Of a stretch of DNA of 64,000 nucleotides, positions 8,021 to 61,623 are shown piece by piece. Every line of letters starts with the position of its first letter. Position 1 is the stretch's first letter. This DNA comes from Crassostrea angulata (taxonomy: Eukaryota), in assembly GCF_025612915.1 (NCBI RefSeq), contig NC_069115.1:25727757-25791756 (forward strand), given 5' to 3'. Made by a program: the position numbers and the translations under genes. Under the pieces are notes generated by a model, which did no database searches, was not told the origin of the DNA, and was given only the letters and a program-made list of their open reading frames with translations.

Positions 8021-8112
8021 GAGATTGAGGGTATCATCAGTCCATTGGTCATTAACCAAGGAGAATCCTTACGATTAAAAGCAATTCAAGAATTTAAAGA
8101 TCGATTTGGAAA
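8021..8112 (+). CDS. MVP: Major vault protein homologue, internal exon (MVP repeat domain); translation EIEGIISPLVINQGESLRLKAIQEFKDRFG(N)
   Basis: acceptor tgtcttctag| and donor |gtaaat; aligns with vertebrate MVP ...[28 protein letters not shown]...; ends in phase 2 and joins exon 14509 in frame. Confidence 0.85.
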
Positions 8113-8880
8113 GTAAATATTTCTTTTTTCTTCTGATACTTGCTTGTTAACTCGAGTGCAGGTTTTGTGAAAATTTTTGTGAGTATTTAGTGTTTTTGTG
8201 AATTTTGCAAATTTTGCACTTTAACAGAGAACTCTTTTGATGTAAGAAACAATGGATATAATATGATATAATTTTGGCTGTGAAAACTGCATTCTATACT
8301 CAAGACTTTTTGGTATATGTGTTAATGTTTTGTATGCAGTATTTATACCCACAAAACACTTTATTGTATGTGTTACTTTATATGCCATATTTTTACCCCA
8401 CCCAATGAAGTTTTGAGGGATATAATATGTTTTGACCCGTCAGTCAATCCGTCAGTCTTTGTTTTCTTGTAATCTACAGAAAATTTTATGAAACTTCATT
8501 TGTAGGTATTTAGGACACAATGTACATATCTTATATTACCAGGAAAATCAATTTTCATTCATTTTGCTTGGAATTTCAGCATTTTGCAACTTAAAATTAT
8601 AGTATTTAACAGTTTGTAAGCATAGCATCTTTTAACGATTTCCAATCCTCAGCAAAGCAAGATAACTCGTTCTCATATTCGGAAATAGTTATTCGTACCG
8701 TGAAGTCCAGCATTTATATTTTTCGGAAATCTTTTGTCAAAAAAGGAGAATATGTTACTAGTAAACAATCCAACATGGAGGGAAACAATAAAGGTCGGTT
8801 CAAAATAGGGTTTCACTGACTGTGACATAAATAACAGCATTGATGAAACTCAGACATACGCAGATTATGTAAATTCTGGT

Positions 8881-9680
8881 TTGGAGTTGGATCACTGTAA
8901 AAATGATAGCGAAGAACTTTCTCGATCGACATATTCCAATATTTTTGATAGGCGAAGGATGGTAGAGTTTTCAGTTTTGGTTGATCATCTAGAGCGAGGA
9001 TGTGTTGTGTGCCATAAACCACTAAATTTAACAAAGTGTGTAAAAGAAAAACAGTATGGTCTTGTGAGCTTGTTGTACATAGAGTGTACCTGCTGCAAAG
9101 AGTTGACTATTGTACCAACAGGGAAGAGACACAACATTGGTGCAAATGGCCAAGGTCCTTTTGATGTGAATACTAAACTTGGCTAAATAATACACTGGGT
9201 ATCCATAGACCAATACTATTTGCTCATAACAGCAGAAAATTTGATGTGTTGTTTTATCCAGAGCAATGAGAAAATGCTCTGACTAATATACCATTGCAAG
9301 ACTGCATTATTAGATTCTGTGATACTCTGCCTATGTTGAAGAATCATGCATCTTGTAATACCACAAATTCAACTCTGGAGACCCTTGTGCTAGAAACTCT
9401 AGGCTGTACATTCGAGGCACATGATGCACTTGAAGATTGTACATATCTACAGAAACTTGTCGAACATCACAGTACAGATTCATATTATTTGAACTATACT
9501 TTCAGTATGGATTATATGATGCAAGTTGTACTACAGATGGAAGACTCTAAATCTAACTTGCAAACTTTGATGTCCTTGCTAACAAATAAAACAGTGCCTG
9601 AGAGCATGGTGAATAGGATGTCTCTCTCTGGCCTTTCAATACATCATCTGCAGTTAAACGTACCAAAGAGGAGGCTTTGA
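8881..9680 (+). pseudogene. Decayed DEDDh (DnaQ-like) 3'-5' exonuclease-domain relic with Cys-rich segment; motifs scattered over three frames
   Basis: frame a: ...CVVCHKPLNLTKC...ECTCCKE...GPFDVNTKLG (Exo I-like FDxxT); frame b (9180-9270): ILFAHNSRKFDVLF (Exo II-like AHNxxFD); frame c: TLETLGCTFEAHDALEDCTYLQKL (Exo III-like HxAxxD). Stops and frameshifts separate them. Confidence 0.4.
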
Positions 9681-10137
9681 TGGTGTACTGAGTGAATGTT
9701 TTCATGGAAAACCAAGAGTAACAAAGCGCAGGAACATTACTACATCTGTCGTTGACTTTTTGAAAGAAAGATAACTCTTTCTCATACATGATGAAAAGAT
9801 ATTTTCGTTTATTTCCATGATTATAATACTGGATACAGCACATTTTTATTTATTTATTTTACATCTACATATCTACTTAATGTTTTTATGTGCAGCAGTC
9901 AAGTGTAATCATGTGACATTTCTTTCTAGACTGATTTTTATAATTTTTTTGCTAAAATTAAACAACAATATCAGATTCATATTTATGTCCGTGGAATGAA
10001 CATATGCTTTGATACTCTACTGAATACAAATTAGCAAAACTTTGAAGTCACTTCTTTTTCCTTATATAAATCTATATGGGTGATAATGCATTATCTTTGA
10101 AAAACGCATGGAAACAATACATAGAAATGCTTCATTA

Positions 10138-11391
10138 GGGCCCCGCAAGGATTTGCAGGTGCCCTATAGTAATTACTCTGTCCGTCCTTCTGTCTGTCCG
10201 TCTGTCGCTCTTCCGTCCACAAATTTTCTGTTTTTTTTCTAATAATTTTTTTCATGGTTGCCCAATCAAGTTCAAATTTGGTATGGTAGTACAGTAGGCA
10301 GAAATACATATTTTGATGCTAAGTTTGGTTCTCTATGTCTTCCGGTTTGGAGCTGGGGTGGTGGGGTAGATTCCTTAACTATACATAATAATGAATGGGC
10401 AAAGAGAGATAACTGCTGAGAATGTTACCATTGTATACTTGGAAGACTGTGCAATATTTGTCCTTTGGGATTAATTAACTTTCCACAGGAAGAAAATCCT
10501 AAGCTTTACCTTTATCTGTCACACTGAGATTAATTACTGCACTGCCTGTGTCTGCAAATGAACTTTGTTTTGAAGTTAAGGTCAATTTTGAATGATGTGT
10601 AGTATTGTGTACATTCTTTGAAATATGGATTTAAAATATATAATATTCATACTTTATTTTGGTTAAAATACCGTACACAATGATTTATAATAATTTTATT
10701 GAATTCTAAAATCAAGATATATATTAAGATATCCTTGTTCACTATTTTATTTTTTAATTATTAATTTTATTTTTTTCTGCCTTTATGCTGTTAGTTTTAA
10801 CAGGTAATCAGATAATAACCCCATTCTGTCATTTCTGAAAAAAAAGTCTTATTGTAAATTTAGAAGAAAAGGATGAGAGAGCAGAACAATTAATCCCCTG
10901 GGATTAATTATCTTGCCTGCTGCAGAAAATTTAGAGGCTTATCTCTATCTGTCATATGAAGATTAATGAACACCTTTGTCTGCAACTGATGTTTGTTTTG
11001 AAGTTGAGGTCAACCCTTGGTGATACAATGTATTTGCATTCACTGAAGGCTTGCATTTTATAAAACACCTGTTTAAATCTTTTGTAAATACACAGTTAAT
11101 TTAGTTTTTTTTATAAGACATGAGGTTATCCCTGTTTTATGCAGATACAAGGTTACTATTTAGAGTTTTTGGACATTCAGGAATTATCTTGAAATTTTAA
11201 AAATACAGTTGTTACTTATAATTTTCATATATTTTTTTTACCACCTTATATATATTGCAGTTCTTTACATCTTATGCCGGGCATTTATTTTTCATCATTG
11301 TTAATATAATGAGGATGGAATTCAAAGTTTTTTTCACTTCTCTATATTAATTGTCATAGCGGGGCCCTTCCTGACTGGTCAGTTTTCTAGT
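10138..11391. repeat. ~1.25-kb dispersed repeat (family X), copy 1, uninterrupted; short inverted termini GGGCCCCGC / GCGGGGCCC
   Basis: near-identical to 36467-37416 + 38715-39115; contains (GTCY)n at 10180-10205. Confidence 0.8.
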
Positions 11392-59739: not shown

Positions 59740-61080
59740 ACAGGAAGACTATTCATACTTCTGAATGCAAAATATAGAGCAAATATGAGAATAATTTCAT
59801 TTGTTTGCTTTGGGGAATTGGGTTATTTGGATGACGTCATAGATAAACAGCAAATGAGCAATGATGACTTAAATCAAGATTCAAGTGATAGGCATCCTCT
59901 GTACAATGATTTATGAAGATTTGATTGTTATGCAATACTATTTAAAAATTGGTTGAAATCGGGGGCAGATACGAGGGTTGTCCCAAAATAGTGTAGACAA
60001 GTGGTGTTATTCAGTTAATCGAAGACAAAAGAAGATGAAATTTGTGCCACAAAGGGTTCAAGAAATTTGCATTCAAATAATGTTTTAAAATCGAATATTG
60101 TTTGAGATTAAATTAGTGAAATGAAAGCATGTTAGATCAGAAATTCTACATGCGGCGCAATGTCAAAAACAAAAAGTTAAAATCAACATAATGAATTGAA
60201 AATTGGGCGGAAAAGTACTTTTCGAATGAAAAAATTCAAATAAAACATACACCGATATTTGATAATAATTCTATTATTTACTCGGAAAATGTTTTGGCTA
60301 TAACAAAACTTTTAAATATTTTATAGCGCGTTTTGTGACAAGTTGAAAAGTTAAGTGGTAATAAAATGACGTTTTCAGCGTTTAAGGCGGCGCAGCAGTA
60401 ACTGATACAATTTTGTAAAGACCATGAAATAAATCCTAAGCGGCTTTGGAAGTAAACGAAATTAACAAAATCGATGAGAAATGCGTTTTGTGAATAAGTA
60501 GTTAAACAACATTGAAAATATTTGAACAAGTATGAAGACAATAAGTGGAAAAAAGAAACCCCGAACGATATCAATGGACGTCAAAATGTTGAACGACACA
60601 TTTCGGTAGGACGGACGTTAGACAACAAGTAATACAGGGCAAGTTTGGAGCCGACAGATCGTTTGTACTTAGAAAATATTTAAAAACAAAAAACTAGAAA
60701 TATATATTGAATGTGCATGCAGAGTACATGTTCAAAGATAATATTTTTCTAAGACATTTTCGGAAATAAAACGTAAATGTTATCGTGAACGATGTGGAGG
60801 GTTTAGCAACAACGCAAAACTGGAAATTTTTGACGTCGTACATTGCGCCGCCTGACAAAACTTGTTGTTACTAATTATTCATTTTCTCGAGAAATAAATA
60901 AAGTACAGATTTGAACTTTTCAGCATTGTTTGCCAAAGGGTCATTGAAGAAAACATAGAAGTCTAATGAAATTCCAGTGAACAGATTATAAATTATGTGT
61001 CCTGTCTACATTATTTTGGGACAGCCCTCATATTTGACCACACCGCACATAGTCCTTTATCCTATGAGTTAAATCCACCG
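59740..61080. repeat. Family Z repeat copy, split at 59971/61031 by a nested MITE
   Basis: 59745-59971 and 61033-61075 are collinear with 18590-18850. Confidence 0.75.
59972..61030. mobile_element. Tc1/mariner-type MITE (1,059 bp), 27-bp TIRs, TA/TA flanks, nested in family Z
   Basis: left cgagggttgtcccaaaatagtgtagaca vs revcomp of right tgagggctgtcccaaaataatgtagaca; TA at 59970-59971 and 61031-61032; empty site cagaTAtttgacc at ~18800; subterminal inverted repeat 60150 / 60826. Confidence 0.75.
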
Positions 61081-61094
61081 TATATTGAGATAAA

Positions 61095-61250
61095 CATGTG
61101 TTATATATATATATATATATATATATATATATATATATATATATATATATATATATATATATATACACACACACACATACATACATACATACATACATAC
61201 ATACATATATACACACACAGACACACACACACACAATATCACTGGGCACT
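61095..61250. repeat. Compound microsatellite (TA)n-(CA)n-(CATA)n-(CA)n
   Basis: direct reading; overlapping ORFs on both strands are artefacts. Confidence 0.95.
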
Positions 61251-61528
61251 ACCATTTCTATTAACAAGCTAAAATATAGGGTGGAATTTGAATGCCGTTA
61301 ATAATCAATGCACCTTATATTGAAAGATTTACAAATGTTGATAACATCAGATTCTATAAAGAGAGGTGGAGAATAAACAAATCAGACCCATGTCAAGTGA
61401 AGTTTCCTTTCAGATTGAATTTTCATTCCTAATTATTTCTCCTTGGATTTTCTTTATTTGATGAAAATTAAACTTTCATAATTTTAGAAGTTTAAGGATG
61501 AAGAAAAAAATGTATATTTTTTTTGCAG

Positions 61529-61623
61529 GTAAGAGCAGAAATGGGACCACAGTCTTACATGCTGTCGGAAGTTGAAGAATTGTGGGAAAAAAGTCTGCCA
61601 GATATCACTGAAGAGCTGCTTAA
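61529..61623 (+). CDS. MVP: MVP exon; translation VRAEMGPQSYMLSEVEELWEKSLPDITEELL(K)
   Basis: acceptor ttttttttgcag|, donor AA|gtaatt; matches [32 protein letters not shown]. Confidence 0.85.

Follow-up and report, generated by a model that had tools for sequence, protein, structure and literature searches.

The question raised by this locus is whether nine short exons, scattered on the plus strand over 53.6 kb of Crassostrea angulata DNA, belong to an intact gene for the major vault protein (MVP), and how such a gene came to be so long. The window, meaning the whole 64,000-nucleotide stretch that was analysed (contig NC_069115.1, positions 25,727,757 to 25,791,756), had been interpreted in an earlier sequence-only reading as holding an internal MVP segment of nine short plus-strand exons, and that core proposal stood, the same exon structure being present in related contigs. 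Taken together, the evidence set out below makes it very probable that the window represents an internal segment of an ordinary, intact and functional MVP gene, the large introns of which are loaded with mobile DNA. The MVP finding is in itself ordinary biology.

Gene model

The exons were compared with contigs from a close relative (L001 to L003, which are short de Bruijn-graph contigs out of read archives), from a distant relative (L004) and with a further related contig (L005). Exon 1 (8021-8112; 92 nt, start phase 0), the first in the window, codes for EIEGIISPLVINQGESLRLKAIQEFKDRFG plus 2 nt, its placement being based on AG/GT sites, on tblastn matches with MVP queries and on a 92-nt AG/GT exon in L004. 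Exon 2 (14499-14568; 70 nt) is identical at 69 of 70 nt, with AG/GT sites, in L001 and L002, and has a 70-nt counterpart in L004. The remaining exons are all bounded by AG/GT and comprise exon 3 (28977-29071; 95 nt, of which 89 are shared with L001, also with AG/GT, and 95 nt in L004), exon 4 (29158-29224; 67 nt, 63 of them shared with L001 to L003, and 67 nt in both L004 and L005) and exon 5 (29393-29534; 142 nt, 133-134 of them shared with L001 to L003, and 142 nt in L004 and L005), the translation of which, when used as a search query, retrieved relatives at 89-94% identity. These are followed by exon 6 (34222-34326; 105 nt, with a 105-nt equivalent in L005 identical at 32 of 34 amino acids, and 102 nt in L004), exon 7 (53866-53953; 88 nt, the same in L005 and 94 nt in L004), exon 8 (58089-58149; 61 nt, with a 61-nt equivalent in L004 identical at 15 of 20 amino acids) and exon 9, the last in the window (61529-61623; 95 nt, as in L004). 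Together they provide 815 nt of coding sequence, or 1.5% of the span.

Eight of these nine placements coincide exactly with those proposed earlier, whereas exon 2 had been displaced by 10 nt, at 14509-14578. In that position the exon would begin with ACAG directly after ...GCATGTT, and hence lacks a preceding AG; it also lacks a following GT, and, the frame being shifted, translation of the joined exons meets a stop codon. Because of these defects exon 2 is assigned to 14499-14568, that is, 10 nt upstream with its length of 70 nt unchanged, where the acceptor reads aatag/CAAGCA and the donor GAGGAG/gttaga. The claim that AG/GT sites and compatible phases hold throughout therefore failed at exon 2 as originally written but is borne out once that exon is moved: the corrected frame runs for 271 codons without a stop, rather than the approximately 250 residues first estimated, with start phases of 0, 2, 0, 2, 0, 1, 1, 2 and 0, and the AG/GT dinucleotides are intact at 18 of 18 positions. 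In the comparison with solved MVP structures, relocation of exon 2 brought a gain of 43 bits (208 to 251), with E falling from 1.2e-60 to 1.4e-73, and the corrected product scores far past chance level. The revised coordinates offer a clean gene model for the part of the gene in the window, with little importance past annotation.

No further MVP exon was detected in positions 1-8020 or 61624-64000 with nine MVP queries, among them the closest one, from Mytilus, which returned only noise even at relaxed settings, in keeping with the expectation that the remaining exons lie outside the window. The window covers approximately 30% of an MVP, and the results on reading frame and selection apply to that part alone.

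Protein identity

Residues 2-271 of the product are collinear and essentially ungapped with residues 159-427 of the rat and human MVP chains (E of 1e-72 to 1e-73, the best being 1.4e-73), such that the end of exon 9 is equivalent to vertebrate MVP residue 427. In rat vault numbering, this segment would run from the last part of repeat 3 through repeats 4-7 and into repeat 8. Pfam analysis identified Vault (PF01505; E 1e-40, in three stretches), Vault_4 (PF17796; 1.1e-09) and Vault_2 (PF17794; 2.8e-06), all of which exceed the curated cut-offs, and the homology to MVP repeat domains that had been proposed is thus upheld. The motifs GEEW, SFFLxPGE and PLxxNEGIY are common to the window protein and vertebrate MVP (4V60, 7PKZ, 9Z4W), with about 45-47% identity between them, although the window holds barrel-wall repeats only; the shoulder, cap-helix and cap-ring of vertebrate MVP fall beyond this segment of the oyster gene. 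The fragment had been thought to reach the start of the shoulder. In fact it ends within the repeat matched by Vault_4, about 105 residues short, since in the 59%-identical Mytilus protein described below a Vault_3 repeat (408-465) intervenes between the end of the aligned region (372) and the shoulder, which is matched from 477. By analogy with MVP function, copies of the protein would stack laterally via their repeat domains and so build up the wall of the vault ribonucleoprotein particle, and the oyster protein is presumably expressed and assembled into such particles.

Conservation and selection

In L001 to L003, exons 2-5 are kept with lengths and AG/GT sites identical to those of the window. 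Comparison of the window with L001 over 124 codons revealed 14 synonymous and 6 non-synonymous changes, giving a dN/dS of 0.11 (Fisher p 4e-06), which indicates that the gene is under purifying selection. All nine exons are present in L004, in the same order but within a span of 14.15 kb, with seven of the nine identical in length and the other two differing in frame, by -3 and +6 nt. The exon structure recurs across three sets of related genomic contigs and is old and conserved.

A divergent bivalve lineage

The alignment to vertebrate MVP emphasised in the earlier reading is collinear, as stated, but the protein is not especially vertebrate-like, being 44-51% identical to canonical metazoan MVPs in general; fish, coral, rotifer and sponge MVPs, over the same region, are 60-85% identical among themselves. 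The nearest named protein is the Mytilus galloprovincialis MVP (VDI74247.1; UniRef A0A8B6H6N9), which comes from a different bivalve family and aligns over 271 of 271 residues without gaps, at 59% identity and 77% positives, with the strings KDTMFKG and IPLSKNEGIYIQ common to both. This mussel protein, which carries Vault_3, the shoulder (PF11978) and a C-terminal coiled-coil-like region, is as far from canonical MVPs as the window protein is, both falling within 39-51% identity, and the protein from L004, a third bivalve-like contig, groups with the two of them. The identities place the predicted window protein in a divergent MVP lineage common to oyster and mussel. Given the long branch, it could have a function other than that of the classical vault MVP, and such long-branch bivalve MVPs could interest researchers concerned with vault evolution.

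Intron growth

Intron sizes of 86 bp to about 19.5 kb, as first reported, were confirmed, the range being 86 to 19,539 bp. Intron 2 occupies 14,408 bp in the window versus 209 bp in L001, and all 209 bp were recovered in the window as three collinear pieces with two insert blocks between them, so that 98% of the intron is absent from the close relative. Intron 5 measures 4,687 bp versus 562 bp in L005, and intron 6 measures 19,539 bp versus 1,219 bp; for introns 4-6 these are comparisons of size alone, the introns of L005 and L006 being too diverged for alignment to the window. No exon base lies within a repeat, all insertions being intronic. The great length of the gene is recent and is due to DNA inserted in introns 2, 5 and 6; introns 1, 7 and 8 have probably grown likewise.

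The first of the two insert blocks in intron 2 comprises about 6 kb of DNA (14662-20682) that is not found in the relative; it opens with a left end of Helentron-N type (TTTTTAGCTCACTGAG...) and includes a 172-bp array at 19268-19892 preceded by a GTCY-type microsatellite. The second is an 8.17-kb element with nested inserts (20777-28944), bounded by terminal inverted repeats (TIRs) that match at 27 of 30 nt (CAGTCCTTGAAATGTTCTACTTTCCCA...) and flanked by TA on both sides; it is without counterpart in the relative, whose intron 2 runs continuous at that point. The growth of intron 2 from 209 bp to 14.4 kb provides a tidy, datable case of lineage-specific expansion via DNA transposons and satellite-carrying Helentrons, through which exons of 61-142 nt would still be correctly spliced, with the transposons acting as passengers that splicing would remove.

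The sequence order around exon 2 differs between the window and L001 in a manner for which simple insertion does not account. The final ~90 nt of the ~6-kb insert (20602-20692) are a second copy of sequence found in the relative upstream of exon 2, and a ~230-bp block containing exon 2 and its splice sites may now be situated ~6 kb upstream of its 'empty' original site at 20602-20776. If true, the relocated exon 2 would be an exon that has outlived transposon-associated duplication and deletion.

Alternative interpretations

The low identity to canonical MVPs (44-51%), the extremely bloated introns and the apparent rearrangement near exon 2 might together suggest a decaying pseudogene, or a dead duplicate broken by transposons, with the long branch reflecting relaxed constraint. 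Such a locus is extremely improbable given 271 codons without a stop or frameshift, 18 of 18 splice dinucleotides intact, a dN/dS of 0.11 against the close relative and exon lengths and phases that are kept in a distant one; moreover, the insertions are confined to introns, leaving the exons repeat-free, and the same divergent lineage retains the shoulder and coiled-coil regions in Mytilus. Nearly as improbable is the notion that the large introns are ancestral and that the short introns of the related contigs arose by secondary deletion or assembly collapse. L001 to L003 are short de Bruijn-graph contigs assembled from read archives, and simple insertion leaves the arrangement near exon 2 unexplained, both of which would accord with that notion. 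Against it, short introns occur in three of three independent sources at three distances, the relative's intron is present whole in the window in three collinear pieces, and the breakpoints are transposon ends, as seen in the TA-flanked 27/30 TIR pair and in the Helentron-N left end, which begins exactly where homology stops.

A more serious contender concerns the identity of the gene rather than its integrity, namely that the gene, though intact, represents an MVP paralogue confined to bivalves or molluscs that has drifted in function from classical vault formation, with a canonical MVP located elsewhere in the genome. Four MVP genes have been reported in Aplysia (PMC9334734), and mollusc MVPs can therefore be multi-copy; this precedent, the 59% mutual identity of the window and Mytilus proteins against 39-51% to canonical MVPs that share 60-85%, and the inclusion of bivalve-like L004 in the same group give the proposal a probability that falls only slightly short of even. 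Weighing against it, the lineage could simply be a sole, fast-evolving orthologue, and the MVP repeat families all still exceed Pfam thresholds. The fuller scenario, in which a fast-evolving oyster and mussel paralogue, maintained by purifying selection and with its exon structure conserved, exists beside a canonical MVP, may serve a variant vault or non-vault role and in this genome has perhaps had its exon 2 relocated, is tentative and rather unlikely. The reading of the locus as part of an intact, functional MVP gene is retained.

Mobile elements in the introns

The introns had been described as almost entirely transposon-derived. This is so for intron 2 and partly so for introns 5 and 6, about two thirds of which are accounted for by repeats, but not for intron 7, of which almost none is; the share in introns 1 and 8 is 36-40%. 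The unclassified remainder, which amounts to approximately one third in introns 5 and 6, to the greater part of introns 1 and 8 and to almost the whole of intron 7, is presumed also to be of transposon origin.

As had been proposed, intron 6 (34327-53865) contains a piggyBac element antisense to MVP, with transposase domain, TIRs and TTAA duplication all present. The element is complete, spans 2,591 bp on the minus strand (46668-49258) and has an intact transposase ORF of 541 aa (47371-48996, minus strand) that matches DDE_Tnp_1_7 (PF13843) with an E of 1.1e-88, from position 2 to the last of the 349 positions in the profile. Its TIRs are CCCTTAGGCTGCT and CCCTTAGACTGCT, the ends reading TTAA followed by CCCTTAGGCTGCT and, at the other side, AGCAGTCTAAGGG followed by TTAA, with the target duplication at 46664-46667 and 49259-49262. 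The features of the piggyBac superfamily are all found in the oyster copy, including a 13-nt TIR (12 of 13 matching), a CCC start, a GGG end, TTAA and a full-length transposase domain; no unusual feature was seen.

Outside piggyBac, a Pfam scan of every stop-free fragment with a length of 70 aa or more, 90 in all, returned one match, to a degraded N-terminal fragment of a Mutator-like transposase in intron 1 (8809-9183, plus strand; PF20700, E 7.5e-07, 28.9 bits against a cut-off of 26.5), and the same 90 fragments yielded no reverse transcriptase and no other transposase. With a single match among 90 fragments, most of the repeats in the introns must be elements without coding capacity.

Several of these resemble the Cg_HINE elements described from Crassostrea gigas by Vojvoda Zeljko et al. 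(2020, PMC7492417), which are non-autonomous Helentrons with satellite-like repeats of the Cg170/HindIII type. The C. gigas elements have a left flank consisting of an inverted-repeat motif and then a (GTCY)n microsatellite, and a right flank consisting of a subTIR and then a palindrome (PMC7492417). One such element at 25083-26481 (plus strand) holds 6.6 copies of a 166-bp repeat of the Cg170/HindIII family, ahead of which lie TTTTTAGCTCACCTGAGCT and a (GTCY)n microsatellite. Self-BLAST and TRF revealed more Cg_HINE-type copies at 41860-42958, 44367-45185, 49859-51259 and 62183-62552, with the 166-bp arrays delimited by TRF at 25331-26481, 42628-42955, 44646-45182 and 49872-51242. Five Helentron-type left flanks read TTTTTAGCTCACCTGAGCT...GTCTGTCGTCCGTCTGTCTGTCC and fit the Cg_HINE layout (subTIR, complementary inverted repeat and GTCY/GTCC/GTCK microsatellite), as compared with the text description rather than with consensus sequences. 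Compared by eye, the 166-bp monomer shows about 97% identity with the CL1 arrays of C. gigas given in the supplement to PMC7492417, with exact 12-15-mer matches numbering in the hundreds, a match in line with the oyster origin of the DNA. The arrays in the window are short, with 2-8 copies of the monomer, as in the C. gigas elements of that paper. Arrays with periods of 172, 161, 437 and 166/328 bp are also present in the window.

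Gene model and identity of the protein

The locus is an intact segment of a major vault protein (MVP) gene, under selection in a transposon-rich oyster genome, and is well explained by known biology. The sequence-only reading, which had proposed nine plus-strand MVP exons, was correct in this call, apart from a single wrong coordinate and two details that were overstated. Eight of the nine intervals (8021-8112, 28977-29071, 29158-29224, 29393-29534, 34222-34326, 53866-53953, 58089-58149 and 61529-61623) have AG directly upstream and GT directly downstream. The exception is exon 2, for which 14509-14578 had been proposed. 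Extraction of this interval with its flanks revealed neither AG before it nor GT after it, and the concatenated translation that includes it has a stop codon at exon 2; the interval was ruled out on these grounds. A three-frame reading of the vicinity identified an MVP-like peptide, KHVTGEEWMINQPGAYLPDVYEE, in another frame, flanked by an acceptor (aatag/C) and a donor (GAG/gttaga), and these bounds place exon 2 at 14499-14568, 10 nt upstream of the original interval and of equal length (70 nt). With exon 2 corrected, the exon phases (0,2,0,2,0,1,1,2,0) are all compatible and the 815 nt form an uninterrupted frame of 271 codons.

The 271-residue product aligns with residues 159-427 of the solved rat and human MVP chains at E 1.4e-73, as opposed to 1.2e-60 with exon 2 as originally placed, a gain that provides independent support for the new exon. 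In the rat vault structure, those residues presumably start at the end of barrel-wall repeat 3 and stop partway into repeat 8. In Pfam, Vault was matched at 1e-40 in three stretches, with Vault_4 and Vault_2 likewise above threshold. The C-terminal end of the fragment falls within a Vault_4 repeat. Alignment with the closest named protein, the 711-aa VDI74247.1 of Mytilus galloprovincialis, stops at residue 372, beyond which the Mytilus protein has a Vault_3 repeat (408-465) and then a match to the shoulder domain, beginning only at 477. Since the fragment ends in Vault_4, before Vault_3 and the shoulder, the suggestion that it reaches the start of the shoulder region was incorrect. Searches of 1-8020 and 61624-64000 with the Mytilus protein and eight fragments of canonical MVPs found no more MVP exons, which is consistent with the expectation that the remaining exons lie outside the window.

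Conservation in related contigs and divergence from canonical MVPs

A protein search yielded one short Logan ORF (P0043), which corresponds to exon 5 running on into its intron. In the three contigs of P0043, which represent a close relative (L001-L003; runs SRR14864945, SRR14864948 and SRR14865144), exons 2-5 are 93-99% identical to those of the window at the nucleotide level and equal to them in length, and each boundary has AG/GT. Comparison of these exons with those of the window over 124 codons revealed 14 synonymous and 6 non-synonymous differences (dN/dS 0.11, dS 0.19), the low ratio being a clear sign of purifying selection on exons 2-5. A search of 1.84 billion representative proteins with the exon 5 translation gave three further contigs (L004-L006). 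Exons 4-7 are present in L005 and L006, which are of intermediate distance, while L004, which comes from a distant relative and forms part of an ENA contig of 2.6 Mb, has all nine exons in the same order spanning 14.15 kb. Seven of these have exactly the lengths seen in the window, and the other two differ in frame, by -3 and +6 nt.

Canonical MVPs from fish, coral, rotifers and a sponge show 60-85% mutual identity over 271 residues, whereas the window protein shows 44-51% identity over the same residues to every canonical MVP compared. Its identity to Mytilus VDI74247.1, in a gap-free alignment, is 59%; the Mytilus protein in turn reaches only 39-48% identity to the canonical set, and the L004 product groups with both. 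On these identities and this grouping, the window MVP is assigned to a divergent bivalve MVP lineage. Given that four MVP genes have been reported for Aplysia (PMC9334734), it is plausible that the bivalve lineage is a paralogue beside a canonical MVP copy; alternatively, this lineage may be the sole MVP of bivalves.

Expansion of the introns

Three introns were set against those of L001 or L005: intron 2 measures 14,408 bp in the window (14569-28976) and 209 bp in L001, while introns 5 and 6 measure 4,687 bp and 19,539 bp (the latter at 34327-53865) and 562 bp and 1,219 bp, respectively, in L005. The introns of L004 range from 348 to 2,899 bp. The 209-bp intron 2 of L001 corresponds to three collinear pieces of the window (14569-14661, about 20686-20776 and 28945-28976), split by inserts of about 6.0 kb and then 8.17 kb. 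The first insert opens, precisely at the end of homology to L001, with TTTTTAGCTCACTGAG, a left-end motif shared with copies of non-autonomous Helentrons (Helentron-N) elsewhere in the window. The second has TA at either side and terminal inverted repeats matching at 27 of 30 positions, features that identify it as a TIR DNA transposon carrying nested insertions.

When within-window repeats, identified elements and DNA that the relative lacks are counted together, the explained share is 98% for intron 2, 67% for intron 5, 65% for intron 6, 40% for intron 1, 36% for intron 8 and 2% for intron 7; no exon base lies inside a repeat. The proposal that the introns are almost entirely transposon-derived is therefore proven for intron 2 alone, and for the others, with shares of 2-67%, is plausible.

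Arrangement around exon 2

In L001 and L002, exon 2 is preceded by an upstream sequence (U) and then the motif AATACTCTCAGAATGCTTGTTTT. The window copy of U and AATACTCTCAGAATGCTTGTTTT is at 20602-20692, downstream of exon 2, and runs without a break into the second part of intron 2. Exon 2 lies within 14429-14661, a stretch that includes the motif a second time and follows unrelated sequence. From this order of segments the exon 2 block appears to have been relocated in the window, and 20602-20776 looks like the former locus minus its exon, an 'empty' site. The arrangement would be explained by a duplication and a later microhomology deletion, or by the exon block having been captured and re-inserted; so too by a mis-joined short-read contig, in which case the discrepancy would be one of assembly.

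A 23-nt motif (AATACTCTCAGA/GTGCTTGTTTT) is found in both 14429-14661 and 20602-20776 (compare L001 95-477). In the window, the sequence that comes before exon 2 in the relative is found on the downstream side of the exon, at a distance of about 6 kb.

Inserted elements and repeats

The sole long ORF in the window (47371-48996, minus strand) encodes a full-length piggyBac transposase of 541 aa (PF13843, E 1.1e-88), within an element at 46668-49258 whose TIRs (CCCTTAG...) are flanked by TTAA at either end. An exact look-up of the transposase sequence gave no recorded match. The one further element to emerge from a Pfam scan of all stop-free fragments of 70 aa or more was a Mutator-like transposase remnant at 8809-9183. 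The ORF that follows this remnant (9270-9677, plus strand, 136 aa) matches PML_C, an exonuclease-like domain, below threshold, and another, downstream of the last exon (62793-63245, minus strand, 150 aa), has no Pfam match. The GC content of the window is 31-39%. Together with the Cg170-type repeats described below, Mytilus as the closest named protein, and the adjacency of the L001-L003 run numbers to SRR14864893, a C. ariakensis run according to PMC11136912, this suggests an oyster of Crassostrea/Magallana type. In L004, the equivalent of intron 8 has a Tc1/mariner-type transposase gene (13659-14699; HTH_Tnp_Tc3_2 and DDE_3), indicating that separate lineages have independently acquired different transposons in the MVP gene.

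Tandem Repeats Finder and self-BLAST revealed many short arrays of 161-172-bp units and one 437-bp array. A match to the 166-bp unit is provided by the CL1 arrays of C. gigas (Cg170/HindIII family) that the PMC7492417 supplement lists, and five copies have an inverted-repeat motif and a (GTCY)n microsatellite in the left flank, as described for the Cg_HINE non-autonomous Helentrons of C. gigas (PMC7492417). The Cg170-type elements of the window resemble Cg_HINE in the CL1-matching unit, the left-flank motif and the microsatellite. One Cg170-type array (49872-51242) is directly adjoined by an array of a different kind at 51249-52337, with a 166-bp unit unrelated in sequence to Cg170, a higher-order period of 328 bp and 91% matches; some Cg_HINE elements have similarly been described with two different consecutive arrays. 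A 172-bp unit, of a family that differs from Cg170, forms arrays of 3.5 copies each upstream of the first exon (727-1330) and in intron 2 (19268-19892), 93-95% identical to each other, the latter preceded by a GTCY-type microsatellite (19201-19251) in the layout of a Helentron-N element. Intron 5 consists mostly of two tandem arrays, one of a 437-bp unit (30725-32599; 4.3 copies, 91% matches) and one of a 146-bp unit (32916-33634; about 5 degraded copies).

Dispersed repeats were also observed. One of about 1.25 kb, at 94-95% identity, is present in intron 1 (10135-11087/11105-11391) and intron 6 (36464-37418/38713-39105), the latter copy being split by about 1.3 kb (37419-38712) that holds a 161-bp tandem array and looks like a nested insertion. 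A tRNA-like sequence at 33990-34064 (plus strand), 158 bp upstream of exon 6, scored 54.6 bits against Rfam tRNA and was called tRNA-Thr (anticodon GGT) by ARAGORN; since a partial inverted copy is present about 1 kb away (35038-35162), the sequence probably heads a tRNA-derived SINE and is not a working tRNA gene. Another family has three copies, 73-87% identical, at 13394-14254, 43220-43849 and 53007-53686 (inverted), of which one stops approximately 180 bp short of the exon 2 block and another 180 bp short of exon 7.
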